DNA of 64,000 nucleotides, taken from assembly GCF_026210795.1 (NCBI RefSeq), contig NC_089429.1:3906001-3970000 (forward strand). The letters run 5' to 3'. The stretch's first letter is position 1; each line of letters starts with the position of its first letter. Shown piece by piece: positions 1,278 through 55,040 of this stretch. The stretch comes from Rhizophagus irregularis (lineage: Eukaryota). The notes under the pieces are model-generated. The model made no database searches, had not been told where the DNA came from, and saw only the letters and a program-made list of their open reading frames with translations. Made by a program: the position numbers and the translations under genes.

Positions 1278-2699
1278 TATATATTATATGTAATATGATA
1301 TAATAGAAAAATATATAAAATATAATAATAAAATATAAATTATGCCGTAATAAAATATCAATACTAAAATGGTGTTTATTATATAATTAATTTAAGTAAT
1401 TTAATTATATTAATTTCTATTAATCAATTAGCAATAAAAAAATAATGCTTATCGAATACAAGCTGCGTTGAAACTTGTTTAATAAGCACTTAAATTAAAT
1501 ATTCTTAAAGCATTTAATAAATGGTTGGTAAATGCTTAGGTTAACTTCGTGATGATGGTACTGAAAACTTTGTTAGATCTTCAGAATATACGCGATATAA
1601 GTATAAAGAGGCAGGCAAACAGTATCCATGTGATTCGCTGGAAATTAACTATTTCAAATCTGCAGGTATTAATTTCTCAAATTTTAACAATAATTGTGAG
1701 TACGTGCAACGAGTTTTCTGAAACATAAGATAGTATATCATATATCCGTATATTCATATATTCATGTATTCAATAGTTAGCTATATAATACAATAAATCG
1801 ATATACTTTTTACCCACTATACTGCCACGATGCATGTAGTAGAACAGTGTACGACATAAATTAGCACGTTTTCAATCCTCGTTAAAGTATATATGATGTA
1901 ATAGGTGATACACCGCAAATCATCTATCTGCTTGTGCGACAAATTAATTTTCACACATAAGCCCAGAATATTTTGAATTTTTTCCCTATCTATCTGAATA
2001 GCATTTATTTATGAGTTTATTTCCTCTGATGCTAGAGGCTATTCCTACTAGATTTCGACCAGAGTATATTTATATAATGTTACTAGGCCTTTATTACTGA
2101 GCGGTCGGGCAAGTGAAATAAAGAAAAAAGTCTGTATATGCATTGTCCCCAACACCATTCTAAATGTCGAGATCTTCAATGCACATTCCGCATGCCCTTA
2201 TTCTTGAACATAAAATTTTGGCGTAAAAGTGCCTTGCATATTCTTCTACTTGATCCCAACATAAATTCAGGCTCAGAGAAGATGGTAAATGGAGATTTAA
2301 AAGGGCAAGTATATAGAATTCAAGTTATTTGTCGCTTATTATTCTTTCAGCGAAATTCTAACACTATATTTTCGTCATTATGTCTTCTTTCGCATTATAT
2401 GAAAATATTTATAATTTTTTACTTGATTCACCCTCAGACCATATTACTGCATTTTCTGTTATTTTTCAACTAATAGAAAATGATACGTGGTATCCAAAAA
2501 ATAAGTTAAGAGAAATAATTCATCAGGCAATTATAGTAGTGAAAAAGAATTACAATCAGACTTCGAAAAAATATCTAAAACTCGTTGATATTCCCTTAAA
2601 GATTAGTAATTATTACTATTATTTATCAGATTATAATCCCAAATGATGATTGCGCAGAATAATATTTTTATAACCAAATTAAGTGAGTACCCATAGCCA

Positions 2700-4280
2700 T
2701 GTGGGCACAGGTTTTATCAGATGCATTAATTCCTTAGACACACAAGGGTGGATCTTAGTTATGGTTTATGAAGAAAAAATATAGCATTCATGTACATTGT
2801 TAATTGTATGCAGGCCACATATAGTTGATAATTTACTTGAAATATGTTGATAAGTGTGCGCACATGATTCTAATATCAAAAGATTAATTACATTAGTACT
2901 AATATAAGGCTTCTGCGCTAGTTTGATGATGCATATGAAGGTGTAAGTAGTCTTCAGAATATCAAAGAATCAAAACAGGAAGAACCGCTCACTAAGAATG
3001 AAATCAAGACGAACTTGCGTGTCTTGAAAACCAATCTTAAAAATAGCAAGGCTCCATACACCTACCACTTCCGTAAATATTTAAAGAAGAAAAGTGCTTC
3101 AAATTTATCATGGCGCGTTCTACTTGCTAGTCAAGTGATTTGTGCGGATTCAGAAATGGTGAGAACTTTGGAAGTAGAGGCATATAACTTTTTTATGGTA
3201 AGTAATTTAGCAAATAGTGTTTTGTATTACCATAGTCTACTTTCTGCAAAGAGTATTTATTATATTAATATTGTGATCTCTATAGGATCCGGCAGAGCGT
3301 ATGAAAGTAACTGCTCCAAATCTTGTCAAAGATAATTGTGATTCCTTTGTTTTGAATTTCATAGACAGTATTACAGATATCCCAAATAATAGACTTTACA
3401 TGATAAAAGTTGGAAAGAATCTAACGAAAAACTAGGAAAAGTTACGTTAGATATACTCAATATCTTGTAAGTATTTCAGTAACGAGCCTTAATATAATAT
3501 AATAATCATATTTGCCATTTCTTTTAACGAAAAATAGTGTTTAACATTATTTTTATAGGAGAGATATTTGGAAAAATTCTGCCTTTGGCCCAAAGTTGGT
3601 TAAGTCACAAAGTGAAGGGACATATATGACTAATGTGATAGTTCCAATGATTCGAGCATCATTAAAAGATCTTCCAATTGGGAAATCTGGTTATATTTCT
3701 ACAGCTGAGCGTCAAAGTATAGCTAGTAAAGATCGAAGAGGAATTGGAAAATGACCAGATGTTATATTTATCGCTAGTTGTAATGAAAGAATATATGAAT
3801 TAATTTATTGTGAGAGTTCTCGTATCATTTGTGATGAACAAAAAAAGGAAAATGATAAGGTAAAAACTTGGAGAGAGATGAATGTATTGGGCCCACAAAG
3901 GATGCAAACTGGACAAAGATGAATTTGGTATTATTGGAATCCAAGTTGCTGGAACTAAGATGTATCTAAATATCCTCATTCGAGGTATGGATGAGATACA
4001 TCGTTTCTATAATTTACGTACAGTTAAAATTCCGATACAACCAACAGATGTTTAAATTCATCGAAATTTTATTAACAATAATATGGGTATGTGGAATGCA
4101 GTTCTTATTCAAATTTTTATTTTACTTTCTTAAAATTAACACATACTTATAATTATAGAATATCTTGCATATCAATATTTCTCTTCTATATTACGCGCTT
4201 CCAACTAGTTCAAGTAGTAATACAGAAAATAGCTCCACTGTATCTTCTTCACCAAGATCATCATCACCACCAAAAATGAA
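2700..4280 (+). pseudogene. Multi-exon pseudogene of a PD-(D/E)XK nuclease-like hypothetical family
   Basis: GT-AG introns at ~3198-3285, ~3467-3558 and ~4087-4158. The exon after 3558 reads ...SEGTYMTNVIVPMIRASL...AERQSIASKDRR..GK*PDVIF...YELIYCESSR, with stops and frameshifts. The 5' boundary is approximate. Confidence 0.5.
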
Positions 4281-4515
4281 AAAAAGAAAGTCTATGAAAT
4301 TCGAAAAAAAAATAATCTAATTGTTGTGTATATTACCGTTCAATAAAGTGCCCTGGTGGCCAATTATTTTTTATATATTCATCTGTTTTTTTTGTATGGG
4401 ATACACACCAGATAATAAAAATTTTTCTTGGCAAATTTGCGGGACTGCGTGGTCTCGGAAAACATGTGATTTTTTACTTTTGAATATTAACATACTAATA
4501 CTATATTACGCTAGC

Positions 4516-4716
4516 ATGCAATCCAAAATAGATGAGACTGATTCATTGAAAATATACATTGCCAGGCTTGAGCTCGAGAATGATAAAATTAAGGTTGAGA
4601 ACAATAAAATTAAGGCCAAGAATCTTGAGCTTAAGGCCAGAGTTGTGAAATTGGAAGACATGCAATTGCAAAACGTATTAATAAAAAATATATTATCTGT
4701 ATCACAAAAGACATGA
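4516..4716 (+). CDS. Small coiled-coil hypothetical protein
   Basis: MQSKIDETDSLKIYIARLELENDKIKVENNKIKAKNLELKARVVKLED shows a heptad pattern. Confidence 0.45.
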   Translation: MQSKIDETDSLKIYIARLELENDKIKVENNKIKAKNLELKARVVKLEDMQLQNVLIKNILSVSQKT

Positions 4717-4980
4717 TCATGTATTAATTTTGGTGAAATTTCTTCAGCGCTGGGGTACCCCTGCCAAAATGATTTTTTCTTGCTGACCAATGGTCGGGTG
4801 TCATGTGCATTTTTGATCAGAGTTTTCTAGCAGATCTTTCGTGATATTGACGCGTATAACTATATCCTGGTAGACTTCGTCTATATGGGTGACAGAATGC
4901 TCAGAATTCTTAGATTCTCAGAATTTTTCTTATAAAATTTCTGAATCTATAAAATTTTCAAAATTTTTTATTAGTTACCT

Positions 4981-5686
4981 ATGGTAACAATGACCGGTAT
5001 ACTAACACCAACTTTTCACGTATATTACTCAAAGCAACTTAACCAGCTCCCCCATTCCATTAAAATAGATACATGGCGATGTCTTACTTCACGAAAACAT
5101 CTATTATCGATAGAACAGGCAAGTAGTATCCACCCCGAAGTGGAAGATTTGTTAAATAAGGCGGTTGGAAATTATATTAACTGAAGCAAAAAGAGCGTCA
5201 GAAGATGAAGCCTATTACCCGCGACTGTGAAAATTTGTTAAGAAAAGAAAATGAGGAGTTGTATATATCAAAGCGGGTATTGGAAAAAAAGATTGAAGAG
5301 CTTCTCGACTTGCAAGAGCAATATAAGTCTTATGAAGTAGCCATGACCAGGTCTTTAAAAGAGAGTGATGGAAAAGTCACCCAATTATCAGATTCGGTAG
5401 CTTTCTTCAAAAGTATAATTCCTGATACGAGAAAAGCCATTGCATCAGCTGAAAAGTCCATTGACATATTAGAGAATAAATGCTAGCATCTGGAGGATAT
5501 TATTTCTGCTAAGGATAGGAAAATTATCACTCTTGTTGATCAGATCCTTTCCAAAACGAAGCATAGTGATGTGACTATAGAGCTGGAAATATATTCTAGC
5601 ACTCATGAAAGGAAATTATGGGCGAAGAGGCGTAGTGAATCTGAACATGATCTAGAAACTAGGAAAAATATACATTTCGTCCTTAG
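4981..5686 (+). pseudogene. Coiled-coil hypothetical protein (frameshift ~5180, stop ~5485)
   Basis: ORFs 4981-5184 and 5205-5486 join and read past TAG (HLEDIISAKDRKIITLVDQIL...). Confidence 0.5.
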
Positions 5687-5700
5687 TACCTAAGAAAATT

Positions 5701-6437
5701 CTACTCATTAGCGAGAGGTACATCCCAGCCAACGCGTATCCTGTATGGATGTTCGCGAGGTACAGTTAGATCGAAAACAACGAATTTTTGTTCACATAAA
5801 TGCTTATCAATAATTTTAATCACATTATGCCAGTCATTAGCATATTGATGCACATAAATAGGCAGATATGTGTGAGATTTTTTTGTATTATCTTTGGGCA
5901 GTCAAAGTAACTCTGGGATACATATATCAAACTGATGTTATAGTGGCGCCCTTCGACGAAATAAGGAATAATTTTCTCTTGCACTTTTTTCAGATCAGCA
6001 TATACATCTTCGAATATAGGCACTGTACCTCTATCTGGAGAGAATGAATCCACCTTAGGGATTTTATCAGGCTTTATAGCCCGGAATGTAATATTTTCAC
6101 GGTATGGCTTTAGACTATTTGCAATTATCTGATACGCCGATTTGAGGTACATATATTTCGGCTCCTTAAGATTGTGACCAATGAGTAGCAAATCATCATA
6201 CTTGATGTAACGTGTTCCTCCTTTCTTCCCATTAAACATTTGATAAAGCTTATTTTCGAGCATGAAATTGAGAACTTCATTAGTTTTTCCTGAATTAGTA
6301 CGGCCACAAATTAGAAGGGTGAAAGGCCATTGGGGGACACTTGGATGTCCATTATATTTTTGGGCATCTTTAATATCGTTGATGTGATATACGAGCCTAT
6401 CAACTGGCTCGAGCTTTTTACTTTCATATTAGACTAT
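5701..6437 (-). pseudogene. A32-like (FtsK/HerA superfamily) DNA packaging ATPase
   Basis: In frame upstream of the tracked ORF 5820-6263 is [15 protein letters not shown] (Walker A, ~6282-6305). Then PIFED (Walker B) and [16 protein letters not shown] (Arg-finger/sensor motif). After a frameshift at ~5855 the C-terminus reads FVVFDL...RIRVGWD. The start codon appears mutated (ATA GTC TAA). Confidence 0.85.
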
Positions 6438-6497
6438 CTATTACTAATGATATTCTAAAATAATCTTGCAATTTTCAGCGACGGCCGTCGTCCAAAT

Positions 6498-7106
6498 TTA
6501 TTTTTGAAGGAGAAGGAATCCTTTCTCGATTAGAGTATGTCTGATATAGGACAAGAGGTCAGCTGTGTACGGGACTTCAATGAAATATATTTCTTGATTT
6601 TTGCATATATCCCGCTTCTTCTGATCACGCTGACTTTGTGTTTTTAAACTTTCGCCTCCTTCAGTCTCCCGATGATAAAAACTATTGTGATGGTAGTGTT
6701 GAGGGTCCTGGAATTCGAATGCAAGACCCAACTCTTTGTTATATCCATTGAGATGCATTCTATTCAAGAATGATGGTCTGCAGGATGGAAATTTCTTGCC
6801 TAATAGATCCTCAAAAATATATTGGCATTAACGTTCACCGGTAGTGTGGTGGTATAGAGGACACCATTCAAATTTTTTCATATATTTTAGTGGATACTTC
6901 CACTAATACGCACCATTTTCACAAAACCAAAGATATATGTTATGACCATTTATTCGCCCAGTCCTTTCTAGATGTTGACCACCATGTCTTCTGGCATAAT
7001 CAATAGCTTGATCTAACTCGTTATTGATAGGAAAAGCATATGCAATATGTACAGATAATATGTTTTGAGATGGACGACCAACCCTTTCTGGATCAGCTAT
7101 TAACAT
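6498..7106 (-). pseudogene. Zn-ribbon + restriction-endonuclease-like (Vsr/DUF559-type PD-(D/E)XK) domain, of the kind seen in large DNA viruses
   Basis: [11 protein letters not shown]...WCP...[48 protein letters not shown]...[21 protein letters not shown], one frame with two stops. Confidence 0.7.
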
Positions 7107-8160
7107 GAGCTCCTCTGTTACAAATCCTCGCTTTGGAGCAAATTCATCATCATCACTTCCGAGATAATATAAGACCAGCTCATTCTTTATAACAACAACT
7201 TTTCAGATTCTATGGAAACTTGGGTTGAATGTAGGGTCAGTTGCACGCTTCTCATTTTCCATACCCCTTCCCATTCTGCATTGGCAAGTAGGTAGTGGAC
7301 GGTATTTCCTTTCTTTAACCTTATTTCATCTTGTCCAACTGGGCGCTTATATTTTGTGGATGGTCTAGATTCGACTCGTTCTAAAGCAATAGCTTTCACA
7401 GGTTTAAGTCCCCATTTTTCTGATCCTGGTTCTCAAATAAGGCGCGTGGGATAGTTATTTAGATAATTAATAACCACTGGTAGAAATCTAACCCATGCTC
7501 TTATTAGTTTAGGATCAGAAGATATTAATTCAATAGCATACTGGATCTTGTATAGAATCTTCGAAAGTGTTTGATTGAAACGCTTCACAAATGCAAGACC
7601 TCGATGGAAATATGGACCGACCACTCGAATTGTGACATTATGCTCTTGCATTAGTTGAGAAGTCTCGCCCATCCATTCTCGCCTATTATCTGTTTAAAGT
7701 AATTTAGGATAGGTAAGAGAATTATTAGGGTCATCATAAATTTTTCTGAACGCTCTAGCAACTTCTGAACTATTCTTAGATGTGAGCGGAACTGAAGCCT
7801 TGTATTTGGAGGCGCAGTCTATAATGTTAAGTACTGCTTTATATTTTTTACCTCTATAGTGATCATGAGTAAAAAATAGTATATCGCACTGGTATACATA
7901 ATTAGGGCATATTATTCGCCATAGCTGGCTCTAGGAATGTATTTTGGAGAGGTTTTATTGATTTGGTATGACTCTTGATTTTCTAAAAAATTTTTGCATT
8001 CACTTAGGTGGAATCGATGCCCTTCTTTTTTACATGCGTCTCTTAAGGATTTGGGATTAGAATAATATCTAGTCAGGCAATAATATACATCACGCAATAT
8101 AAGATTTTTTTCGATTCTTTTAGCCTCATCAGGATCTATCACAATTTGCGGTTGGCTCAT
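7107..8160 (-). pseudogene. Polinton/Maverick-type DDE (rve) integrase
   Basis: YQ.NK.SPKYIPR, PNYVYQCDILF (D1), VLNIIDCASKYKASVPLTSKNSSEVARAF, TDN (D2), FVKRFNQTL (catalytic E now K), WVRFLPVVINYLN, YKRPVG, RATDP, LYYL...[10 protein letters not shown]. Several stops and frameshifts. Confidence 0.85.
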
Positions 8161-8209
8161 TCTCAAGGTAGGATTATTATGATGGTACTATAAATTAGGA
8201 TGAAATACC

Positions 8210-10423
8210 ATGTTTGATCCAGCATATTCACAGCTTTTAGATACTAACCAGGAGCTTCGTAGTGAACTTCGAGATGAAATTTCTATTAATAAGAGTAATG
8301 AGAAAAAACTTCACTCTCTCGTGAAAGAGCTTGAGCAATGTTATCGAACTATCTCATTACAGGATAATACTATTATAACCTATGAGAAAGAGATAGAGAA
8401 ACTTAAATCAGAAATATCTAATTTGCGAAAACAGCTTAGGGTTTTACAACAGGATAAAAAATTCAAAGATGATGTTAGGTCTATTCAAGATGGCCGAATC
8501 ATAGAGTTTGAAAATAAGGTAGAACGTTTCAAGGCAAGAATCCGGATTTTCATAGACAAAAAAATTCCAATAGATAATTTAGATATGGCAACGACTAATC
8601 TTATTGGAAATGTTAATAGAAAGTTAGAACGAATTGAAAATCACATTAGGAGAGTCAGTACGCCTATGCAGAATCCTGCCAATGTTATAGATGGTATCAA
8701 AGGCTCGTTAAATACTATTCAGGTTACTTTGCAAAATATCACAACTGAAAGGGATCAATATCAGAACCTATTAAATGATTCAATTTGGCGGGTAGATGAT
8801 CTTAGAAATCAGTTAAATGATAGCGGAAATCAGAATTTACGATTACAACGTTTATTAGATGAATTCTGTGTTCAGGTTGAAAGAACTATGAGAGAAAGGG
8901 ATGTAACTATAAGGGGAAGAGATAATGCTTAAGAAGAGCGGGATATGGCTATTCTGGCTTATAATAATGAGAAAAAAGAATCCTGCCGTTGGTATTTCTC
9001 ATATCGGGATAAAGATAGGCGTGTTCAAGAATTATTGCGAGAAAAGTTTGCTAAACAGATATTATGTCAGCAGAATGTTAACTATCTTTAGCAAAATACC
9101 CGACAGTTGCAAACTAATGCTCAAAACTAAGTAAATAGGATGTTAGTCATTATAGCAAGAAAACAAACCCGCATTGGCAAATTGATACGTGAAAAGTTTG
9201 TTTTCCAGCTAGTGATTAGGCAAAGAGACCAGAATATTTTAAATTTGTAGGGACAAATTTTGGCGCTTCAGAATAACTGAACCTAATTGTAAACATGGCC
9301 GATGCTAGACGTTTACCAGTATTAAATTTGATTGCACCTATTCTTGCTAAAAATAAGCCGTATACAGGCCAAGAACCTTCTGATAATTATTTGGATAGGC
9401 TTATTCAATCAATATCATTTGCGCAAAGACATATGACTGTTCTTGAAAATGCAAATGCCGGAGATTTTGATGATGCTGTCAAGTATGATATTTATAAAGC
9501 TCCGTCAGATGGGAGGAAAATATTTACCAGTTCCTGCCTAAGACTCATATAATGGAAATGCTAATATTAATACTCCAGCTACTTTACGTGTTTGAATGAG
9601 ATCAAAATATCAACATGAAACAGTAGGTAGTCGGCAGTCAGCACTGCAAAGGTTAATTCAAGAAAGATTTCTACCCACAGATTCACCAGATACTTATGAA
9701 AAAAGAATCTGACCTTTATTATTAGGTGTAGCGGATGGTGATGTCCAAACTGTAAGATTTCTTAAGAATCACTTGTTAGGTAATCTTTATACATGGATGC
9801 GAGCTGTTGCTCCTGCCGGTATTGATGCATTCTTTACACAACTTAAAGATATGTGGTTGGAGCGTGCTCCCAATCTAAATGGAGGTCAAAATTATCAGAG
9901 TAATTCTTCAACTGAGATTGATAAGTTAAATTCCAAAATAGCCTCCCTTGAAGCACAGTTAGTTCAACTGATTCAGGCACAACCCCAAAATAATGATGCC
10001 TTAGAAAAGATGTATATACGCGCAGTGCGGTTAGGAATGCCAGTTGATGCACCAAAAGATCTTACATCCTTAGATAATTATATTAATGATGAATTAATAA
10101 GGAGATTGGGCGTTGCTAATACCAATTACACCAAGCTTTCCAAAAAATACTCTCAAATGGTTAATGTGGTCAAAAAGTTAGCCAAGCATAAATGCTCTAA
10201 TTGTGGTAAAGCTGGCCACAATTCTCGTAAATGTCTCAGAAAAAAGAAGAGTAAGTCTAAAAAAGGTAAAGTAAATCTTGCCACTTTAGATTTAGGTTCA
10301 GATTCGAACACTAACTCTGATAAGTCGTCTGATGACTCTTCTAATTCTAGTTTGAGTTCTTCATCTGAATTCGAGTCTGAAGCTGATATTAATGTTAACA
10401 TTACTAAGGCAAAAAAAAAGTGA
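8210..10423 (+). pseudogene. Long coiled-coil + Gag-like (capsid-like) + CCHC zinc knuckle protein
   Basis: The 8210 frame reads through TAA/TAG stops to ~9280. Then PYTGQEPSDNYLDRL (Gag-like N-terminal motif), LQRLIQERF..DSPDTYEKRI (MHR-like) and CSNCGKAGHNSRKC (CX2CX4HX4C). Confidence 0.7.
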
Positions 10424-11314
10424 AGAAAGAATCAAGTAATCCTTCCCCTCCACTAAAAAAGAAATCAAAGAGCCACCTTACGGCCAAGTCTCAAGAGGTA
10501 ACAGATATAGAGACAGCTCCTTTGGTCTCAGCTCCTTTCTCTAAAAAGAAAAAGCGAAGTTCAAAATCCCTATCACAGGATAATTAATTCCGCTTGGAAA
10601 ATATTATTGAGAAAATTATTGAGAAGGTGCTTAATGAAAAGTTTGGCGCCATTATAGCCTTTTTTCAATCACAGAATTCTGCTTTTAGAATACTGGTTAA
10701 TAGTAGAGATGATCTCACTTCGAATACTCCTGAAACTCCAGACTCAGATAAAAAGACGAAATTCTAAATGAACCTATAGAAATCGATTTTGTTCAGAAAA
10801 AGGATCCTGCCACTGATGTTGTTACTACTAAGTGTAAAATCAAGCATCTGATCATTCCGGTTGCTGTGGTTGATTCTGGTGCTAATTTTGCAATTATGAC
10901 AGATGATATCTCTAAACGATCAAAGCTAGAAATTGATACAAAAGAAAAACATGATCTCAGAGGTATTGCTACTACTCCCACAAAATCTCTTGGAATTGTC
11001 AGAAATGTCCAGTAAATTTCACTTCCAGATGTACTATATATGCTGATTTTGCTGTAGTTAAATACCCTAAGCCGATACTAATCTTACCCAACACACTTCT
11101 TGATAAATATAATTATGATTTACTTGCATCAAAGCAGGAATTGAGACTAAAGTGTAATGGTAAGGAATTTTTTATCCCAAGTAATATGCATAAGGTCAAA
11201 AATAAGCTTGAGGTGAATTGTGCGATCACTACTTCCAAATGTGATGAATCCTCGACCCCGAACTGTATTTCGCAGGATTTAAGTGAGGATTATGATGTAT
11301 TAAAAAAAAAGTGA
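10420..11314 (+). pseudogene. Retropepsin-type aspartic protease with basic linker
   Basis: AVVDSGANFAIMT (DSG at 10872), LRGIAT...SLG, ADFAVV...PILILPNTLLDKYNYDL. Frameshifted, so absent from the ORF track. Confidence 0.75.
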
Positions 11315-11447
11315 GTTATAAGGAACTTGAAAAAATGCTATATAGCACTCTTAAGTATAATGCAGAAATCAATAAGTATTGTGAAAGATTACAGGCACGC
11401 TATAATGAACTTCTTGCCGAAGACGCTTAAGGCAGAGAATAGGCGAG

Positions 11448-11966
11448 TTATTTTTCTAATATATTCTTCATATTTGCTATATTTTTTATGTTTCTTTCAA
11501 CTATCTTCTCATACAACGTGAGAATTGGTTGAGACTGGATAGGAGATGGTATTAGCGGTGGTATCCCATCCTTGGACTTCGATTTCTTCCCTTCGGCCTT
11601 TTTTGCCTTTTCACCTTCTTCCAAAAGTGAATCAATAGATTTGCTAGACTCTATCTTAGCATCATGTATTTGTTTTTCTAGCTCTGTAAATGGAGAAACA
11701 TCTTGGTCTTGGATCTCTGACTTAGTCCGCCCGCCTACAACATTTATATTAGAAAGCGAAACAGTCTCTCCAGGAGCAGCTGTTGACATATGAATTGGTT
11801 GATTCCACACAACCCCATTTTTTTCTTCACCTTTCCAGATCTGATAAATACGTTTTTGTGATGTACAATATTTATCTGTTAAATCCTTTAAAACTTTATC
11901 TCTAGGCTTTTTTTCAGCACATTGCATAATATGATCATAATCGGCTGGTGAAAAAGGGGGCATCAC
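11448..11966 (-). CDS. Hypothetical protein, possible N-terminal HTH
   Basis: 172-aa ORF; LKDLTDKYCTSQKRIYQIWKG resembles a helix-turn-helix recognition helix. Confidence 0.5.
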   Translation of the reverse strand: MMPPFSPADYDHIMQCAEKKPRDKVLKDLTDKYCTSQKRIYQIWKGEEKNGVVWNQPIHMSTAAPGETVSLSNINVVGGRTKSEIQDQDVSPFTELEKQIHDAKIESSKSIDSLLEEGEKAKKAEGKKSKSKDGIPPLIPSPIQSQPILTLYEKIVERNIKNIANMKNILEK

Positions 11967-13019
11967 ATCTCATGCGTCGCCTAAGCATAGTAGCAATATT
12001 TTTTTTTATATCTAATATAATACTCCGAAATAATTTATTAAATAGGATATATATTATTCTGAATATATAGGATATACAGGATATACAGGATATATAGGAA
12101 GATATTATTCTAGACGTATAGGATATATGGGATAAATAGGATATTTAGAAAGATTGTATTATTCTGATTGTATAGGATAAGTTTATTATCTCGGAAATAA
12201 ATTCATACATTTTTTTTCTAATATATAACCATGCTGATATTATGTCCAATGTGCATACATTAAATGATATAAAAGATAGAGAGGGTGGTTCTTATAAAAA
12301 ACCTGGTCATCGGCTAGGTAGTGCATATGAGCAAGAGCTCAAAAAAAAATTAAGATCTGTTACCGAATTTAACTCTGAGATTAATGATCTCAGTGAAAAG
12401 CTGGTAGATAAGTACAATGAGCGAGAAAAGGAGTCTCAGCGAACCTATGCTGATATTAGAAATAAGATTAGCCAGTTAAATGCGTCCAGTGCTAAAGTTA
12501 AATCCCAGCTTATTTCTGAACGGAAGTCTCATTCTGAGAGTTATCGTGAGCTTGAAGCCAAATATACTGCCGAAATCAAATCGCTCAAATCTTCTATTAA
12601 ATCATTGAAGAGAGAGGCAACTTTGGCCCAGAAAGTTTCGTCCGCCGACAAGATCAAGATTCTTTCTCTTGAAACTAAAGTACGTGAATTGGAAGGTAAG
12701 TTGGATGACTTGGAACTAGAACAGGTGCTCCACGATTTGAATGCAGTGGGAGGGGTGATAGAGGAGCCAGCCCAATCTGATCCTAAAAAGATCGATTCTC
12801 TCAGGCTTGAATTGGATCGAGTGAAGGAGGACCTTAATTCAAAAAATTATGAAATAGAATGTATGGAAAAAGGGAAAGAGGTGTCGGATAACATATACAA
12901 ACGGGAGCTAGATATTCGGTCTTCAGAACGATTAAAATTGATGGAGGAAAATAGTTCCCTCAGGGACCAGTTAGCGTTAAAGAAAGAGCCAAGAGGCGCT
13001 TCGCATAATGAAGTAGATA

Positions 13020-14610
13020 CAGTCACCCCTCTCTACAGCGAACCTCGATATAGCGAATAACATGATATAACGGATCATACAATGTGGTACCGATTTTAAA
13101 TATGAAAAAAACCTTGATATAACGAAGTTTACTATTTATTTACCATATAACATAGTACGAAGTAAAGTGTGTGAATTTCTTATATAAAAATGCCTCTCGA
13201 TATAACGGATTTTTTTTATAACGAATTTTTTTCAGTTATAACGAAAAATTTCTTTATAATTAAATGTAATTATTAATAAATATTGATGCATTATGACATT
13301 AAATATCACCCCTGTGTTTTATATTTAAATTATGGATCAGGATTGTATCAGGATCGTATCAGGATTAATAATTCTGGCTATTTTATTTAATATTTAGGCA
13401 GAATTACATTAATTTACATTAATTCGGTTGTATTAGGATTCGATGTGAATTGTTATTAATTTATATTTATCACAGGGGTAAGGACACTCCTAGTTAAATT
13501 AATATATCATTAATAATTTATTTATTATATAGTCAGTTATTGTTAAACAGCATTCCTACAAAAAAAAGGAATTATAATAAACCTTTTTATATAGAACACT
13601 TCAGGAAGCATTCCCTATAATAAAAAAATAAAAAAAGAACATTAGTAAATATTCTTAAACGAAATTAAAAGAAAAAATTGAGTTGTCCCACTTACTTCTT
13701 GTCTCAAGCGTTCATTTCGAAGTCCCTACAATAAAAAAAAATAAAAAAGAATATTAGTAAATGTTCTTAAACGAAATTAAAAGAAAAAATTGAGTTGTCC
13801 CACTTACTTCTTGTCTTAAGCGTCCATTTCAAAGTCCCTACAATAAAAAAAATAAAAAAGAACATTAGTAAATGTTCTTAAACGAAATTAAAAGAAAAAA
13901 TTGAGTTGTCCCACTTACTTCTTGTCCCAAGCGTCCATTTCAAAGTCCCTACAATAAAAAAAATAAAAAAGAACATTAGTAAATGTTCTTAAACGAAATT
14001 AATAAAAAAAATCGAGTTCCCCACTTACTTCTTGTCTCAAGCGTCCATTTCGAAGTCCCTACAATAAAAAAAATAAAAAAGAACATTAGTAAATGTTCTT
14101 AAACGAAATTAATAAAAAAAATCGAGTTCTCCACTTACTTCTTGTCTCAAGCGTCCATTTCGAAGTCCAGGAAGTTCCCTATAATAAAAAAATAAAAAAA
14201 GAACATTAGTAAATGTTCTTAAATAAAAAAAATTGAGTTCCCCACTTACTTCTCGTCTCAGGCGTCCATTTCGAAGTCCAGGAAGTTTCCTACAATAAAA
14301 AAAATAAAAAAAGAACATTAGTAAATATTTTTAAACGAAATTAATATAAAAAACCCCCCAGTTCCCACTTACTTCTCATTCTAGGCATCTATTTTGAAGT
14401 TTAGAAAGCACCCCTATAAAAAAAAGATTAAAAAAAATGTTAAATTATCAGTAATCAGATCAACAAGTCACATGATCTGTATAACCGATATTCCTATACC
14501 GAAGAATTCATTATACAATACCGAATAATTCGTTATAGTGTTAACGAAGTTGCTTATAACGAAGCCCTGATCAGCTGGAACCTAGGGTTCATTATATCGA
14601 GAGGGGACTG
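13020..14610. mobile_element. Non-autonomous Tc1/pogo-like element, TA TSD
   Basis: TA|CAGTCACCCCTCTC ... GAGAGGGGACTG|TA with subterminal ATAACGA repeats. Confidence 0.8.
13600..14420 (-). repeat. Tandem repeat, 7 x ~110 bp, each unit = intron + 30/40-nt exon
   Basis: On the minus strand each unit is GTAAGT...ACTAAT...T-rich...TAG followed by GGACTTCGAAATGGACGCTTGAGACAAGAA. Confidence 0.85.
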
Positions 14611-14616
14611 TACTCT

Positions 14617-15609
14617 CAATGTCGGACAACTTCCCGACAACCTTTTTCCTGACATACCCTTTGCCTGACAATGATTACCTGACAAGACATATTCCCAAAT
14701 GTATATTTTACCGACATGACACATTCCCTAATAGACATTATACCTACATGTTAGTTTTCCCGACATGACATTATCCCGACAACACATATCCCAACAGAAA
14801 TTTCCTGACATGTTGAGATGATTTACAAAAAGTAAATGTATCATGTTTATAAATATAAATATAAATGACTGTTATTAACAGTTCTTTATTTTCCTTTTTT
14901 TTCAATGTGATTTTTCACGACCAGCATGGTTTATATATATATATATATATATATTTAATAATTATTTCATTTTTTTTAATAATTTTTTAAAACCGTTTTA
15001 ATTTACTTTTTTATCTAAATTTATTTTTAATTTATTATCATTTTTTTTAAAAAATAACTATTTTATAACAATTTTTTTTTAAAAAAAGGTTTCTTAAACC
15101 GTTGTACTTTATAAGACATGGATATATTTAATAAGACAATTGTCTTATGGCAAATTCTTTTTTAAAAAGTTGTTAAAAAAATAACTGGAAATAAATAAAT
15201 GCAACTAAAATAAATTTTTGTAGGGACACAACGGGTTGCTGCAAGTTATTTTATTAAAAATTTGCACTATTAAAATGAAATATATAGTGTACATGAAATT
15301 GCGAATTTTTACTAAAATAAATATATGAATAAACAAATAAAAAAATTTTCTCCATATGTTTTATTTTAAATAATTGGGAAATTCGGGAAATCGCTTTTTT
15401 TAATGTATATGTCATGTCGAGAAAATGTCTGTCGGGAAATGTGTTGTCAGGATAATGTCATGTCGGGAGAACTAACATGTCGGTATAATGTCCATTAGGG
15501 AATGTGTCATGTTGGTAAAATATACATTCGGGAATATGTCTTGTCGGGTGATCGTTATCAGGCAAAGGGTATGTCGGAAAAAAGGTTGTCGGGAAATCGT
15601 GGTGTAACC
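14617..15609. mobile_element. Non-autonomous DNA transposon with ~190-bp TIRs (MULE- or hAT-like), 8-bp TSD
   Basis: Left arm of CCGACA repeats (14630-14812) is inverted to the right arm (15410-15600). TSD is GATACTCT/AATACTCT, with the left copy split by the pogo-like insertion. Confidence 0.75.
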
Positions 15610-15934
15610 AATACTCTACCCCTGCCTATGAATGATTCATCACAACCTTCCACTCTTAATCCTTCGTCCCAAATAATTTCTGTGGGTGGCACAGAAGCGG
15701 TATCTTTACAGGCGACTGCTCTTATCGTCACGAGCTTCTTGATGTCGCCTATATTAATATATTCTATACTTACCTTACTACTTATTGCAATTATATGGAT
15801 CGTGGTTGGGAAAAAAATATGGAATATATGGAAAAAAAGTAACCAATTTTTCACCTACGAAAATTATATAAATAGGGATCATGCAAAGCGCCTTTCGCCC
15901 AGACCAGATCATTATTATTTTCAATCCTAATCGA

Positions 15935-16273
15935 CTACCGTATAAGTACTGGCGCAAATGGAACATCTTTGAATCTTTTCTTGGTGTGAGCTAATAGCTT
16001 TTCTGGTAAATCTTTGGGCGGATTTATTAAGACTTTTTTAGCTTGGACCACTGTACATGCTAATAACCAGCCAATATGGATCAGGTTACCTCCTTTACCA
16101 TTATGACCATGCTGTAGTAAATATCGATAGTCGTCCATTACGATATCTGCCATTCCTTCCTGATCTGCTATTATTTTACGAAACACCCACCTATCATCTT
16201 CTGTGATTGGGAGACGAATTTTGTTAGGTTCGAAGCCTATGTACTGGGAAACTTGGTCGCGTAGTTCAGCCAT
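15935..16273 (-). CDS. Hypothetical protein of the virus-like block
   Basis: Intact 112-aa ATG ORF whose stop lies 4 bp from the stop of the opposing gene. Confidence 0.55.
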   Translation of the reverse strand: MAELRDQVSQYIGFEPNKIRLPITEDDRWVFRKIIADQEGMADIVMDDYRYLLQHGHNGKGGNLIHIGWLLACTVVQAKKVLINPPKDLPEKLLAHTKKRFKDVPFAPVLIR

Positions 16274-16843
16274 TATACCAATAAAGCTTATCTAAAATAT
16301 GTGTTTTTGGCTGGGGCCCCGGCTGAAATTTGCCAAATTATTATATGCGAAAAATACTAATGATCATCTCTGGGCATATCCGAGGCTGAGCTATATGATC
16401 GGAGATCAGAGAGATGTTCGCTTTGCAAACTCAGGTCGAATATAGAAATTGAAGTTAACCGGTAAATAAATATCACGAAAAATAATTCTAAGACAATGTT
16501 GTACAAAATAAATCTGGCCAATAAAATTTGTTGCGGTCACGTTACAGTAAATTTTTTGGTGGTGTTCTTGGGGTAGTTAATCTTGGTGTAATAACACTTG
16601 TTGCAATAATAAAAACAAATTCTGTCACACAAACAACTAGTACAACTAGTGACAACTTGCGATAAAAAAAAATCATCCCACGATGTCGTATGATCTTTAT
16701 TAGTTTTCTTTTTTGTATTTAAGCCATTAAGATAGCCATTACTTCTTATAAATAAAATAAAATAAAATTTAAGCCATTAAGATTTTTAGGGGTTTCGAAA
16801 ATTACTTTTTTGCTTACAGTTAATATTAATAAAACGGAAAATA

Positions 16844-18446
16844 ATGTTTAAAAAAATCGTCAAATTTCTATTCTTCTCAACTTATTTTTTCCCTACTGCA
16901 TTAGCAAGAATACCGATTTCTGATATGTTTAACTTTGAAACAAAGGAATATGTTCCCTATATAATCGTCACTTTAATTCTTTTAATTACGCTTATTCCAA
17001 AACAAAAACTTCTACTTAAATTTATCAGGTCGATGATCTCTTTAATCTTGATATTCTTCTTAGCTCTTATTTTCCCCCTTCTATTCTGTTACAAAACACA
17101 AGGCTTCAGCAAGTTTATGATAGTTTTAATAGCTTTCTATTGTTCAATAATAACATGTATTATAATAATATGGTGTATTTTTAAATGTATAAAAAATGAA
17201 CTAATGAAAACAAAATTTATTGTCTCTGGAACCTTGATAATCCTCATAGCATTCATTTTCCCACCTTTATTCATATATGTGGCAGATGGTCTTAGCAAGT
17301 TAACAATAATTTCAACGGCCTTATATTGGAGAACTATTGCATCTATTTTAATAGCAATTATAACATTTCTAATTTCAAAAGACGAGTTAAATAAAAAAAT
17401 AGAAATAGCCATTATAATCCTCGCAATACCTTTAACATTAATTATGATAATTAGTCATCAACCTTTAGTATTTTATGCAACAAATAATCTTGATAGTGTA
17501 ACAATAACCTATTTGGTTTTACTTGATAGTCTTATTTTTATTGTCAATTTTCTTGAATTAGCAAAAAGACACTTCACTTCTTATTGCTCACCAAAATTAT
17601 TTACTTGGGGCGGGATAATGCTTGTTTTAATATCGTTGTCAATGGTTATTTATAGTGTAGTAATTGCGATCAAGTTTGGTTGGAAATACTCTTATATTAC
17701 AGCTATAGTTAGAGATGGGCATGTTATATAACAATATAAAATAACACAATGTTATATAACATATATAACATATATAACAGTTATATAACATAAATAACAA
17801 TGTGTAACAAATATAATACTGGCCAAAAAAATTGTATAGTGACTATAATTCTAGCCAAAATTATATTAAAAAATTTCTGATGTGATCGACGAAATAATTT
17901 CCTTTTTTGATTCTTGTGTAACAACTGTCAAAGATTTTCTCAATTTTTATTGGGAGACAAAATTTCCTTTTTTGGATTCTTGTGTAACGTCACGTGATAT
18001 GTGCCGAAATTAGAACTTAATTCCGGCTAACTTAAATTAATTTTGGCCAATTTTGTTATATAATGTTATATAATGTTATATATGTTATATATGTTATATA
18101 ACTAATATCAAAAAATGTTATATATGTTATATATGTTATAAATGTTATATAACGTGTTATATGCCCATCTCTAGCTATAGTTATTAATTTAGTGGTGTTC
18201 TATTGCCTTGAACTTTTATATAAAATGAAAATAGTTGGATATATAATAAGTACCATTTTATTTGGAGTAGATTACTACATTTTATTTTATACATTCCAAA
18301 ATGAAGTCAATTCAATTTCGCTCTTACTTTTCTGGGCAGATTTATGGAGTATATTATTTATAATTTATGTTAGCATTGAAAATGAAAGGGAAAATGTTGA
18401 GGGGGAAGAACCAGATTTTGATATTGAGAATTTCATATCACAATAA
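16844..18446 (+). pseudogene. Multi-pass membrane protein (~376 aa when restored), disrupted by a hAT MITE
   Basis: Signal-peptide-like N-terminus and about 10 hydrophobic segments. Removing 17710-18181 joins YITAIV|INLVVFYCL in frame. Confidence 0.75.
17710..18173. mobile_element. hAT MITE (464 bp)
   Basis: TIR TAGAGATGGGCAT; perfect 8-bp TSD GCTATAGT. Confidence 0.92.
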
Positions 18447-25575: not shown

Positions 25576-27124
25576 CAGTCAACTCTCTTTATAGTCACAC
25601 ATTTGGGACAGTCCATATTTGGTGATTATAAAGAGATGTGACTATATAAAAAATTTCTTATATTAGTATATCATAATTCCGGCCAAAAATTGACATAATT
25701 TTGGCCAAAATTATACTTAAAACTTTATTGTATCGTAACTCCTCCAATATTAATCGTAAAGAGATGATCTTACCGCCATTCGATTCGTCTTGATGAGACG
25801 GTTCTAATGGTATAAAATACATCGAAATCCAATCACTAGATTAATTTCCGAAATTAAAAAAATATTAATGGTTTTTGTGTAATAACTCTGCCAATATTGA
25901 TCCTAGAGAGACGATCTTACTACCATTCGATTCGTCTTGATGCGACGAATCTAATGGTATAAAATACATCGAAATCCAATCACTAGATTAATTTCCGAAA
26001 TTAAAAAAATATTAATGGTTTTTGTGTAATAACTCTGCCAATATTGATCCTAGAGAGACGATCTTACTACCATTCGATTCGTCTTGATGCGACGAATCTA
26101 ATGGTATAAAATACATCGAAATCCAATCACTAGATTAATTTCCGAAATTAAAAAAATATTAATGGTTTTTGTGTAATAACTCTGCCAATATTGATCCTAG
26201 AGAGACGATCTTACTACCATTCGATTCGTCTTGATGCGACGAATCTAATGGTATAAAATACATCGAAATCCAATCACTAGATTAATTTCCGAAATTAAAA
26301 AAATATTAATGGTTTTTGTGTAATAACTCTGCCAATATTGATCCTAGAGAGACGATCTTACTACCATTCGATTCGTCTTGATGCGACGAATCTAATGGTA
26401 TAAAATACATCGAAATCCAATCACTAGATTAATTTCCGAAATTAAAAAAATATTAATGGTTTTTGTGTAATAACTCTGCCAATATTGATCCTAGAGAGAC
26501 GATCTTACTACCATTCGATTCGTCTTGATTCGACGAATCTAATGGTATAAAATACATCGAAATCCAATCACTAGATTAATTTCCGAAATTAAAAAATATT
26601 AAATAGTTTTTAAGTAGTAACTCCGTCAATATTGATCATAGAGAGATGAGCTTACCACCATTCGATTCGTCTTGATGAGGCGATTCCAACGAGCTATTAA
26701 TCGTCTTTTTACAATCACTAGGTACCGAGATATTTAGCAAAATGTTAAATGGCACAGTAAACGTAAATCAAGGAATATAATAATGCCGATGCTTAACATT
26801 TTGTTGAATAACTCATCAGCCAGTGATCGTAAAAGGATAAAACTACCACCATTCGATTCGTCTCAGTGAGACGATTCTAACAAGCTATGGTGCATCTTTG
26901 TACGATTATTAGATGCCAAGTTATTTAATATATTCTTTATATAACTGTGATTATAAACAATTCTTTTTAATATAAGATTTTTGAGGATAGGTGTGATAGT
27001 GACTATAGATAGATTGTGACTATATAGGATAGATTTTAATAATAAAGTGTTTTGAACATTCAACTGGTGTGACTATATAGTAGAATGTGACTATAATGGG
27101 AGTGACTATAGAGGGAGTTGACTG
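25576..27124. mobile_element. Non-autonomous Tc1/pogo-like element with internal 147-bp tandem array
   Basis: TA|CAGTCAACTCTC ... GGGAGTTGACTG|TA; second copy at 30666-39487. Confidence 0.92.
25746..26720. repeat. 147-bp tandem repeat, 6 full units + 1 diverged
   Basis: Unit starts at 25746, 25893, 26040, 26187, 26334, 26481 and 26628. Confidence 0.95.
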
Positions 27125-28067: not shown

Positions 28068-31000
28068 ATAAATTTTATTATACTGTACATTTTAAATAAT
28101 AACAGTCACCGGAAATATCATATGCAGATCATTTCTATAATAAATCGATTTTGTGTAATATTGATCTAACAACTTTATTTTGTAATTAACCGTCAAATTC
28201 TTATGTACTATGCTTGTGTAAATTACAAAATTTATAGATAATCATGTGTTCTATTAATTTCTATCGTCACTTTCCATTTAAGTAATTTTTTTTTTTATTT
28301 CATGTAAAACCACCTTAAAAAAGTGGTTTTTTTGAGATTGAAGTTGAGAAAAAGAGAAAAATATACTTTTGACGATGATAATATATGCAAAATCACGAGA
28401 AGAAAATGTTTTTCTAAGTTAATAATGGTGGTTGTCTAAGCAGCTTTTGCGTAAAATATAAAAAATCAAATTTTTTCTATTATAGAAAGCATTTTTAATA
28501 CTAAAGACAAAAAAAAAAATAATAAAGCCTCATTTTTTTATGAATTATTAATATATTCTTGTATTTATGACTCTTTTAAATTATATTTGCTGATTATAAT
28601 AGTATTTGCTTATGCTAATTTCACTAATTTCTCTTTAAGTGAGCCAAAATTTATTAATGAATTTGGAATTTTTTATTCTTTTAACTCAGAATTTTTGTTT
28701 AAGGTAAGTTTTGTGCGATGATTTTTGATTTATAATGATAAATATTTCGATCACTAATTTATTTTTCGTTATATAGATTGAATAGATAGGCAATTTCTTC
28801 AATGATGTTAATTTTTGTAAGTTGATTAATACTAAAGTATTATTATTATTTTTTTCATGTTACTGTTACTTTTTTTGTATCTTATATATAGGTTCATTTG
28901 TCTTTTTTTTTATATAGGTTGAATAATAGTTAAAAATCATTTCTTAATGATTTTTGATTTTCGTGATGTCAGATGGATCAGGTGAAAAAAATGTAATTAT
29001 TTATGTGTGTTAATTTATTTTTTTGAAAATCAATTTATTTTTAATTTATATTTACTTATATAGATTATTTTTTTTTTCATGTATAATGGAAATTTCATTA
29101 TCTTTTTAACGCAAATCAAAATATTTCATACGTCATCAAAGAAATCAATTTTATTAGTCTTACAGTATTATGGTAATTGTAATGTTATTAAAATTGTATT
29201 ACATTAACTATTTAATTATTTTAATAAAAAATTTTTAATATTTTAATTAAAAAATGATTTTTTTTTTCATAATAGTGGGTAGTAGGTACGGGTAGGCATG
29301 GTAGTTTGGAGTTCAAGTGTTAGTTGTTTCTTCCTCACTTTCTCCTTCTCCTTTTCCTTGTTCCACTTCCTTTTCCACTTCCTCTTCCACTTTCACTTCC
29401 TCTCTCTCTCCCTCTCTCTCTCCCTTTCCTTTTCTCCTTTTCTTTTTCTTCTCTCATTTCTATTTTCTTTTCCTTCTTCATCTTAGTAATATCAGCAACT
29501 GTAACACGTATAATATTTCTTGCTCTTCTACCAACAGTTGTATAATGTTCTGTTAACAAAATTTCTTGATTTACTATTGTTTATAATCTTTTAATTCCAA
29601 TATCATATGCAGTAACTAATTGATTAACTCCATCATCATTTAAATTATTACAGAATTCAAATACTGGATTTTCAAGAGGATTTTCAGACTCAAAAGCGTT
29701 AATCAATAAATGTGCGAGTTCTCAAATCTTTTCCTTTCGAGATTGAACATTATGTGGACGAGAACTTTGAACAGAATCTCCAATGTAATCACAAATCAGC
29801 ATTTCTGTTCGCTCCTTTTCTAGTTGTGTAGCTTTTATTTTTAATTTTAATTCTTCCCCATCTGTTGGAATTCTTATTACGTTTTGTTTTACAAACGTTA
29901 CCTCAAATATTTCTAACGCTTCGTCATATGCAAAAAAATGTCCAGGGCTCGTTAAATTAACAGATGGTGCTATATGAAGCATTTTACGAAGTAAAGGATC
30001 ATTTTCTATACAATATATATGATATGTTATAGATCTTGCATAATTGGATTTACCAGCAACAGGAAACAAAGGTGAGAAAGCTTTTAAACTTTCATGTTGT
30101 AGATTGAATATTCCCTATCGAATTCCAAACCAATGTGCACGCCAATAGCTAGCCCATTGAAAATACAAATACCAAACTTTTACAAAATTATTTTCTTCAC
30201 TTAAAATACTATCTAACATTTGTTTTTTTTTTTTTAATATATATATAAATTGCAATTCCCACAGAAATCCAAATTAATTCCAACACTTTTGAAGTTGCTC
30301 TGAAGTCTACACCCTTTTCCAATTTATTTAAAAATCATACACCTAATATTCCTGCCATGTTGAATATCCCATAACCTGAAAAAATTGTAATTAATGTCAT
30401 CATCATGTCTTTATTTGTATGCCACTGCCCAAGAATCATTTTTGTTTTTTGATTTGTTTTACAATAACTAATACCTCGTCTAAATATTGCTTCATCAGCA
30501 ACTACATTAATATTTCCATTATTTTCCATACCAATTTCAGTTAAATACATCCTTAGGCATTTATCTACAGCAGAATCATTTGATAGTGGATCTCCAGCAT
30601 TAAGAATTATAACATTGGGAGGTGAAAGTTTAGAACCAACTTCAAAATGGGTCATAATTTGAGTACAGTCAACTCTCTTTATAGTCACACATTTGGGACA
30701 GTCCATATTTGGTGATTATAAAGAGATGTGACTATATAAAAATTTCTTATATTTGTATATCATAATTCCGGCCAAAAATTAACATAATTTTAGCCAGAAT
30801 TATACTTAAAACTTTATTGTATCGTAACTTCGCCAATATTAATCGTAGAGAGATGATCTTACCGCCATTCGATTCGTCTTGATGAGACGGTTCTAATGGT
30901 ATAAAATACGTCGAAATCCAATCACTAGATTAATTTCCGAAATTAAAAAAATATTAATGGTTTTTGTGTAATAACTCTGCCAATATTGATCCTAGAAAGA

Positions 31001-31482
31001 CGATCTTACTACCATTCGATTCGTCTTGATGATACGAATCTAATGGTATAAGATACATCGAAATCCAATCACTAGATCAATTTCCAAAATTAAAAAATAT
31101 TAAATGGTTTTTAAGTAATAACTCCGTCAATATTGATCACAAAGAGATGAGCTTACCACCATTCGATTCGTCTCGATGAGGCGATCCCAACGAGCTATTA
31201 ATCGTCTTTTTACAATCACTAGGTACCGAGAAATCTAGCAAAATGTTAAATGGCGCAGTAAACGTAAATCAAGAAATATTATAATGCCGATGTTTAACAT
31301 TTTGTTGAATAACTCGTCGGCCAGTGATTGGAAAAGAATAAAACTAAAAACAAAAACAAGAACTCTCTCCCGTTCTGCTCACTTGACAATATTTACGAAA
31401 AAATAAAAATTTTTTTTCGGAGTTTTTTATTACTTTTTCTTTATAATTTCTTTATTTTAGATAACTACTCGACACTTTACAA

Positions 31483-33503: not shown

Positions 33504-33552
33504 TTGTTCTCTTTTTCCCTCTTCTTTATTACCGATTTATCAGGGTGTAATA

Positions 33553-42678: not shown

Positions 42679-42779
42679 TAAACGCTGTATATTGTGAAAA
42701 AAAAAGAATAAAAAAAAAGAATTATATACTCAATTTTATTAGCATATAAATATTGTTATGTCCAAATTAGAGTCACAAT

Positions 42780-43243
42780 TAGAGATGGGCATGTTATATA
42801 ACAATATAAAATAACACAATGTTATATAACATATATAACATATATAACAGTTATATAACATAAATAACAATGTGTAACAAATATAATACTGGCCAAAAAA
42901 ATTGTATAGTGACTATAATTCTAGCCAAAATTATATTAAAAAATTTCTGATGTGATCGACGAAATAATTTCCTTTTTTGATTCTTGTGTAACAACTGTCA
43001 AAGATTTTCTCAATTTTTATTGGGAGACAAAATTTCCTTTTTTGGATTCTTGTGTAACGTCACGTGATATGTGCCGAAATTAGAACTTAATTCCGGCTAA
43101 CTTAAATTAATTTTGGCCAATTTTGTTATATAATGTTATATAATGTTATATATGTTATATATGTTATATAACTAATATCAAAAAATGTTATATATGTTAT
43201 ATATGTTATAAATGTTATATAACGTGTTATATGCCCATCTCTA
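42780..43243. mobile_element. hAT MITE, apparently identical to 17710-18173, without TSD
   Basis: Same 464-bp sequence; the flanks GTCACAAT / ATAATACC differ. Confidence 0.92.
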
Positions 43244-53379: not shown

Positions 53380-53580
53380 TTGTTAATAAATTTTCTATTT
53401 CGTTTTCAAATGGTAAAATAAATTTTATTTCTTTTTCTTCAAATAATATGCAATGATAATTTATATTTGTATGAATTATAAATATATATATTTCTAATCC
53501 TATTCTTTCAACCATTTTTTTTTTATTTTATTCATCTCGTTATTCATTATTATTTATTATTTTTTAAACTTTTATCTTTC

Positions 53581-55008: not shown

Positions 55009-55040
55009 CTTTAATGTCTCTCCACTATTATGGCCAAAAC

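Follow-up and report, generated by a model that had tools for sequence, protein, structure and literature searches.

We analysed a stretch of 64,000 nt from Rhizophagus irregularis (contig NC_089429.1, positions 3,906,001–3,970,000 of the forward strand), which is referred to below as the window. A block of ATPase, integrase, Gag and protease genes located at about 4420–16450 was confirmed by six-frame translation and family scans, and this block is a broken copy of a multi-copy mobile element of Glomeromycota, the mycorrhizal fungi. In intact relatives the genes are arranged in the order coiled-coil gene, A32 ATPase, integrase-nuclease and then, head to head, the Gag-protease gene. Compared with intact homologues, the ATPase, integrase, Gag and protease genes of the window copy all contain stops or frameshifts, so that this copy is dead. 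The core features are listed here in window coordinates.

4990–5693, plus strand: conserved gene convergent with the ATPase gene, with a small helical head and a long coiled coil (13-row alignment), broken here
5701–6430, minus strand: A32-type (FtsK/HerA) packaging ATPase, Pfam PF04665
6498–8160, minus strand: rve (DDE) integrase, zinc ribbon and PD-(D/E)XK-like nuclease, about 550 aa when intact
8161–8209, no strand: head-to-head spacer of 49 nt between the integrase and Gag start codons
8210–10423, plus strand: Gag with a long coiled coil, predicted capsid domain, CCHC knuckle and acidic linker; many stops and frameshifts
8210–9290, plus strand: N-terminal coiled coil of Gag
9295–9865, plus strand: predicted capsid domain of Gag
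10193–10234, plus strand: CCHC knuckle of Gag
10408–11314, plus strand: linker and retropepsin-like protease, broken here by a frameshift; catalytic-motif region at 10866–10883
10411–10423, plus strand: A-run and stop that close Gag, a candidate site of −1 slippage into the protease frame
11302–11430, plus strand: second, identical A-run and stop at the end of the protease, then a short frame of about 40 aa

A preliminary description of this DNA, made from its letters alone, had placed an A32 ATPase and a Polinton-type integrase on the minus strand, and Pfam bore out both. The window ATPase scored 27.7 bits against Pox_A32 (PF04665; cut-off 22.8), and the rve cut-off was cleared (36.6 bits) by the intact integrase homologue P0199, which is 83–87% identical to the window over the integrase part. 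The integrase fragment of the window, damaged by two frameshifts and five stops relative to intact homologues, matched rve weakly and under the cut-off (E value 5e-5). The ATPase gene has suffered a frameshift and a short deletion near 5855; its Walker A (6282–6305) and Walker B (6006–6017) motifs are kept across a 47-row alignment, and 329 of 352 candidates were retained as ATPase homologues. A PDB sequence search with the ATPase profile gave a single spurious match.

The zinc ribbon and the nuclease fused to the integrase had been missed in the preliminary description. The nuclease part lies at about 6498–7020, is joined to the integrase by the zinc ribbon and has homing-endonuclease matches in PHROG (E value 2e-8); the whole fusion is a single open frame in the loci L001 (553 aa) and L031. 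The fused nuclease resembles both homing and restriction-like endonucleases, and a second integrase family of Rhizophagus (P0237, P0485) does not contain the nuclease fusion. The integrase profile matches retroviral integrase cores (best E value 2e-8). Unlike the Ty3 integrase of the same window, to which it is 20% identical and from which it is separated by a long branch, the integrase of the element has no N-terminal HHCC motif, and it groups with stand-alone integrases of 330–360 aa. In the widespread subtype B of the integrase (L001, L031, P0167–P0230) the ERFN glutamate of the DDE triad is absent, yet the genes have stayed open under purifying selection, and another glutamate close by may take its place. 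The integrase was assigned to the Maverick type partly on sequence patterns that we take to be diagnostic. Such patterns, together with a phylogeny whose available passages group the A32 ATPases of Glomus and Rhizophagus with those of Maverick-Polintons (10.64898/2026.06.19.733378), suggest that both the integrase and the ATPase are of Maverick type.

The best named matches of Gag come from Glomus and Rhizophagus (78–88% identity). In total, 46 longer Gag relatives were obtained from 3,646 candidates, and a profile of the capsid region revealed 230 clusters at E ≤ 0.001, of which the best 150 were listed. The layout of coiled coil, capsid domain (CA), linker and protease, often with a CCHC knuckle, is kept down to about 30% capsid identity in long members (Rhizophagus and Diversispora among others). 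A capsid model was built on the homologue P0322, which is 69% identical to P0007, itself 65% identical to the broken window copy. The model is almost all helical, with a predicted local distance difference test score (pLDDT) of 88. When it was compared with 48,161 chains by VIA, ranks 1–35 were all occupied by capsid proteins of retroviruses or retrotransposons. The best match was the C-terminal CA domain of PEG10 (Z 10.9; root-mean-square deviation, rmsd, 2.7 over 82 aa), the second-best fold match was the domesticated Ty1 CA restriction factor, and the capsids of copia, MLV and dArc1 covered both lobes at higher rmsd. CA proteins also filled all 34 rows listed by Foldseek, and the Atlas match is to Retrotrans_gag clusters at 0.94. 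A PDB sequence search with the CA profile gave two matches at E value 0.04, both unrelated. The Gag core, whose fold had been named earlier as a point to check, is thus predicted to have a retroviral CA fold.

The preliminary description had also proposed a DSG aspartic protease. A DSG-containing motif is indeed present at 10866–10883; as a family label it does not hold, since close members mostly have DPG or DSC and distant ones DTG. The window protease is 41% identical to the homologue P0341 (E value 5e-19), which clears Pfam Asp_protease_2 (29.1 bits versus 24.3), and through this homologue it is assigned as a putative retropepsin. A 13-nt A-run with a stop is present in two identical copies on the plus strand of the 64 kb, one closing Gag and the other the protease, and the −1 frame is open at each. 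Similar ends are found in homologues: KKK or KKR terminates 8 of 12 proteins that have no protease and have an acidic C-terminal stretch, L/F-K-K-K/S terminates 20 of 23 that reach the protease end, and a run of this kind lies close to the end of 11 of 23 distant representatives, many rows in these counts being close kin. The homologue P0036 continues past the protease into a similar tail. Four folds revealed no RNA hairpin that would stimulate frameshifting (z from −0.2 to +1.4). These data suggest that −1 slippage at the A-runs is likely. The second junction also resembles what we take to be the consensus of a splice donor, and splicing is an alternative to slippage there. It should be mentioned that the frame behind the protease was considered as a paralogue of, or a fusion with, the coiled-coil protein encoded from 12242; BLASTP gave no alignment, the contig joint spans undetermined sequence, and no fusion is claimed.

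To describe the distribution of this gene block, the ATPase alignment was used to retrieve 117 related metagenome stretches from 600 pattern matches, and the best 80 of the 117 (soil contigs) were studied. The nuclease is present in 42 of the 43 ATPase loci with at least 350 nt upstream (the exception, L025, carries an unrelated gene) and the integrase in 20 of 21 with at least 900 nt (in the exception, L065, a homologue of a small ORF is inserted before the nuclease). All eight loci reaching the integrase start contain a divergent Gag start about 50 nt away. The plus-strand Gag-like gene had been placed about 50 bp from the integrase, and the start codons are 49 nt apart in the window. The spacer, followed by the Gag ATG at 8210, is near-identical in the seven loci compared and is likely a shared promoter. 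Gag and integrase also have adjacent locus tags or accession numbers in annotated genomes of R. clarus (RclHR1_13470009/11; GES84376/77) and R. irregularis (OCT59_020172/74; GBC22390/88; GLOIN_2v1777355/58), and several annotated integrase gene models extend into the ATPase.

The recurrence of this synteny bears on the explanation that the remnant of a long terminal repeat (LTR) retrotransposon was inserted by chance beside Maverick debris. Such an event would fit a region rich in nested elements. It is refuted by the recurring synteny, seen in 8 of 8 testable loci and five annotated neighbour pairs with a conserved spacer and no relative fused to reverse transcriptase (RT), and we consider its probability negligible. 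With Gag present in all eight testable loci, an origin of the Gag-protease pair as a stray LTR remnant is rejected.

Contigs of three DNA runs were placed on 1500–13200. Their depth is low at 2300–4200 and the summed depth is mostly several-fold higher at about 4240–12800, with dips inside the multi-copy region (e.g., the slot at 11666–12056); summed contig depth is not a copy number, and its rise over about 4240–12800 indicates that the element is a multi-copy family. Pairwise medians of dN/dS (the ratio of nonsynonymous to synonymous rates), calculated for open copies, are 0.13 (ATPase; 110 pairs from 16 intact copies), 0.15–0.16 (integrase and nuclease; 3 and 14 pairs) and 0.21 (convergent coiled-coil gene; 14 pairs). 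The ATPase, the integrase-nuclease, the N-terminus of Gag and the convergent coiled-coil gene are under purifying selection. The last of these genes is intact in L011 and L075; its product has an all-helical predicted model, and a fold search with this model gave generic coiled-coil matches and nothing more specific. In a poly(A) run with the same species label, 24% of which was read, the mean depth was below 2 across 4237–12838, a weak result because the strain may differ. No relative of the element was found in the viral contigs or in the prokaryote genomes scanned.

We favour, with moderate confidence, the reading that this is a DNA element derived from a Maverick/Polinton, in which the jelly-roll capsid and adenain have been replaced by a Ty3-type Gag-protease pair. 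With canonical Polintoviruses/Mavericks it shares the rve integrase, the A32 ATPase and a compact two-directional gene block; it differs from them in the predicted CA-fold Gag, the aspartic protease and the integrase-nuclease fusion, while neither jelly-roll nor adenain, neither PolB nor terminal inverted repeats (TIRs) were found in it. With Ty3/Gypsy elements (Metaviridae) it shares the predicted two-lobed CA, the CCHC knuckle, a retropepsin and a frameshift-like gag-pro junction. Unlike them it has no RT, RNase H, LTRs or HHCC integrase, it encodes its integrase separately and on the opposite strand, and ahead of CA it has about 350 aa of coiled coil.

The absence of RT and LTRs, claimed in the preliminary description, was upheld by motif and Pfam scans of the family and by repeat searches of the window. 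A YxDD-like motif was found in none of 208 family proteins, and Pfam scans of 47 long members of the Gag family detected neither RT nor RNase H nor rve. In the window a convergent ORF (open reading frame) comes after the protease, and neither the repeat search nor self-comparison of 3500–18000 revealed a flanking direct repeat. These results have to be set against the idea of a retro-parasite without its own RT, whose Gag would package element RNA, whose cDNA would be made by RT borrowed from host LTR elements and whose integrase would insert it. It is well established that Gag with a CCHC knuckle, a protease and frameshift-like junctions form an RNA-packaging toolkit, and a Ty3-type element at 52–57 kb of the window shows that the host has a source of RT. 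Against it stand the missing direct repeats and the apparent Maverick type of the integrase and ATPase; moreover, no single transcript evidently spans the element, because the genes face both ways from the 49-nt spacer. We consider this explanation improbable.

Genes for PolB, jelly-roll capsid and adenain, which had likewise not been seen before, gave no Pfam match in 85 window segments; PHROGs, run on 19 of these, detected no jelly-roll capsid or adenain either. Polintons carry PolB by definition of the class, while the window copy is without it. Glomus Polintons have been tabulated previously: P_Gi1.1/Polinton-1_GI (11,954 bp) and P_Gi1.2 (11,019 bp) have no major capsid protein (MCP), penton or cysteine protease, and the ATPase is kept in P_Gi1.2 (PMC4028283, Table S1). 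These Glomus/Rhizophagus Polintons are like the window element in fungal lineage, in similar size and in the three missing genes. They are unlike it in that the available descriptions, which are the basis of this comparison, contain no Gag, retropepsin, fused nuclease or frameshift sites. An expansion of Mavericks in Glomerales and Rhizophagus, reported as recent in the passages available, has also been described (PMC11952901, PMC8647823).

One could ask whether the block arose by deletion from an ordinary Maverick and is non-autonomous, the complete form having PolB and an undetected jelly-roll capsid and Gag being an extra. The decay of the window copy, in which there is no PolB, the Maverick expansion in Glomerales (PMC11952901, passages available) and the possible location of further genes beyond the stretch analysed are all consistent with this. 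Two studies whose accessible parts report no MCP in Glomus Polintons speak against it (PMC4028283 and, still so, PMC7805220). Besides, structure prediction for a single core orphan gave an all-helical model, and no ORF matched a capsid family in Pfam or PHROGs. A derivative of this kind appears to us improbable too.

If the Gag-protease pair has instead replaced the capsid genes, as we favour, the element could function as follows. It would be replicated as DNA, by PolB of complete copies or PolB supplied in trans, and the DDE integrase would insert this DNA. Slippage at the A-run would yield Gag and a smaller amount of Gag-protease from one transcript. Gag would then build an intracellular particle in the style of retrotransposons, to be matured by the protease. 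The retained ATPase may act on the DNA of the element, and the simplest role for it would be to load this DNA into or onto the Gag particle; this is the least supported step of the scheme and is proposed tentatively.

The capsid region itself suggests another possibility. Three exchangeable capsid types were revealed between the same flanks, with a joint near 9280, and one of them is related to the Ty3 Gag of the window at 55.6–57.2 kb (E value 1e-7). Such swapping is as expected for a factor that tracks host retrotransposons. Gag-protease might thus be a stably captured accessory and not a shell, either a DNA-binding scaffold or an interference factor against host Ty3; the element would then be a capsid-less DNA transposon and the ATPase a non-packaging translocase. 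The second-best fold match, a domesticated Ty1 restriction factor, agrees with this, and other slots of the element vary too. However, the two capsid lobes, the protease and both A-run junctions have persisted in divergent members, and a particle would more readily account for why the ATPase was retained, because nine MCP-less Polintons had lost the ATPase and also the protease according to the parts available of PMC4028283. We regard the accessory role as unlikely.

Several observations weigh against the proposed replacement of the jelly-roll capsid by Gag. As general background, the known partners of A32 motors are jelly-roll capsids, and a Gag shell normally assembles together with RNA. The VIA score near 11 falls in the range about which VIA warns for helical proteins, Foldseek gave no match at E ≤ 0.001 with the same model, and the Atlas match shares 132 features versus 170 typical of same-family matches. 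A CCHC knuckle is present in 7 of the 46 close Gag proteins, the DPG and DSC motifs are atypical for a retropepsin, and the usual third acidic residue is missing from the integrase subtype of 32 of 64 rows, 21 being untyped. The median dN/dS of Gag, 0.24, comes from two pairs and from the coiled coil. The eight informative loci are short and represent about two close subfamilies and one integrase subtype, while 72 of the 80 are too short for Gag. PolB had no Pfam match in 26 element segments and 59 flanking segments at 1.3–31 kb, and of the TIRs that, along with a target duplication of 5–6 bp, characterise Mavericks, no long one bounds the block, nor does the motif at its left edge have an inverted partner. 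The proposed replication step is consequently unanchored. Family-wide statements on PolB, capsid genes and termini are bounded by the longest locus available (5.2 kb).

The preliminary description went too far in suggesting an undescribed class. Apart from the long-known capsid-less Glomus Mavericks, the legend of Fig. 5 in Starrett et al. 2021 (PMC8502044) and in its preprint gives, for an unnamed PolB-bearing "related element", a label that stands for retroviral Gag and retropepsin. This may or may not belong to the same family, the comparison being with the legend only, where the host is not stated; the text searched in that paper neither discusses the element nor names its host, and contains no analysis of structure, synteny or selection. 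No other Gag-bearing fungal Maverick was found in the literature passages available, including those of PMC11296320, PMC10120064, PMC6431247, PMC5751038, PMC10640383, 10.64898/2026.10.13.758929 and 10.1101/2025.06.16.659975, and figures or tables outside these passages may already name this element. Because of the Glomus Mavericks and the Starrett legend, we describe the element as a variant that is undescribed in the text of these sources, and not as a wholly new class.

The Gag-for-capsid replacement would offer a testable answer to why Glomus Polintons have no detectable capsid gene, though some keep a packaging ATPase (PMC7805220 and PMC4028283, parts available). If a Gag shell does carry DNA, the retroviral capsid fold would be found in an element without RT and served by a motor from an unrelated virus lineage. 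Many "hypothetical" gene models would be explained in genomes of arbuscular mycorrhizal fungi, where Mavericks are reported to have recently expanded (PMC8647823, PMC11952901, passages available). More speculatively, one can imagine a lineage of endogenous double-stranded DNA viruses of mycorrhizal fungi without reverse transcription, with a virion of CA-fold Gag matured by retropepsin and filled by an A32 motor that was inherited from jelly-roll viruses. In its origin the entire capsid module would have been exchanged across two virus realms, CA would have been drawn again and again from host Ty3 elements, and the membrane-anchored coiled coil could be an envelope-like protein. We hold this larger picture to be possible but doubtful.

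The remaining features are located at the left edge and in the right part of the block.

4342–4361, plus strand: conserved DNA motif, close to where the multi-copy region begins on the left, recurring in seven other loci
4516–4716, plus strand: short coiled-coil ORF, aligned in L011, L050, L066, L073 and L075, absent from L040
11448–11963, minus strand: orphan ORF in a variable low-copy slot, no credible Pfam match
12242–13020, plus strand: multi-copy coiled-coil ORF, its 3' end cut by a nested element
13021–14610, no strand: nested non-coding element with a TA dinucleotide on either side, short terminal inverted repeats and, inside, tandem repeats of 110 nt
14626–15600, no strand: second nested element with 181-nt inverted arms, 90% complementary
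15604–15930, plus strand: Ser/Pro-rich stretch and one hydrophobic segment (hydropathy peak 3.0), directly beyond the two nested elements
15935–16273, minus strand: small orphan ORF, a family member whose position shifts between copies
16294–16347, minus strand: motif of about 50 nt resembling, inverted, a motif at about 4712–4770; one stretch of L040 matches both sites

The left motif has one match in the window, and none of 100 shuffles was as good. Contig depth increases from about this motif. As an element terminus it was rejected as unproven, since shared DNA runs past it in four of the seven loci that bear it; this shared DNA, together with adjoining nuclease-like genes in several loci, means that the element may reach further left than 4420. 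The neighbours at this edge vary: nuclease-like genes were noted at about 2100–4320 of the window and in L040 (3854–4891), L075 (1699–2205), L021 (3576–3836) and L060 (2946–3677). The gene of L060 is Uma2 by Pfam, and the other four we take to be nuclease-like by resemblance. The left edge is possibly a variable cargo slot.

In the right part, the description of one compact block applied to the genes, with convergent stops given as 4–16 bp apart and measured at 7, 17 and 4 nt. It did not include the two nested inverted-repeat elements, which interrupt the block at about 13021–14610 and 14626–15600 and are not part of the element. The ORF at 11448–11963 had been labelled "HTH-like", for which Pfam gave no support; the surrounding 11332–12207 is covered by one low-depth contig, and another contig differs over 11360–12305. 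The coiled coil and the membrane segment of the "membrane-anchored coiled-coil" label are both present, separated by the nested elements. The coiled-coil ORF from 12242, with high contig depth over 12448–12838, has no membrane segment of its own, and the stretch at 15604–15930 is likely its displaced C-terminus. The small ORF at 15935–16273 had no Pfam match and no usable Atlas match; its homologue in L065 (51% identical, 110 aa) lies between the nuclease and the ATPase. For the 15-nt core of the motif at 16294–16347, 24 of 100 shuffles were equally good, which is not significant alone; the motif is possibly a subterminal or promoter element.

The window also contains other repeats and mobile elements. 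The Ty3/Gypsy-type element at 52156–57242 (minus strand) has Gag, protease, RT-like and integrase frames and is flanked by a 99% direct repeat near 51480 and 58399. Frames of endonuclease, RT-like and RNase H-like type are found in two LINE-like elements, at 31300–38950 (plus strand) and 44440–50120 (minus strand); repeats near 26831 and 39194, 96% identical to each other, enclose the first. Short repeats form palindromic arrays at 890–1216 and 62020–62302 (arms of 163 and 109 nt), and there is a tandem array with a 147-nt period at 25578–26759 and 30814–31260. Finally, an intact ORF of 295 aa with multiple membrane segments (16844–17731, plus strand) had no Pfam match and adjoins a repeat that recurs at 42766–43219.

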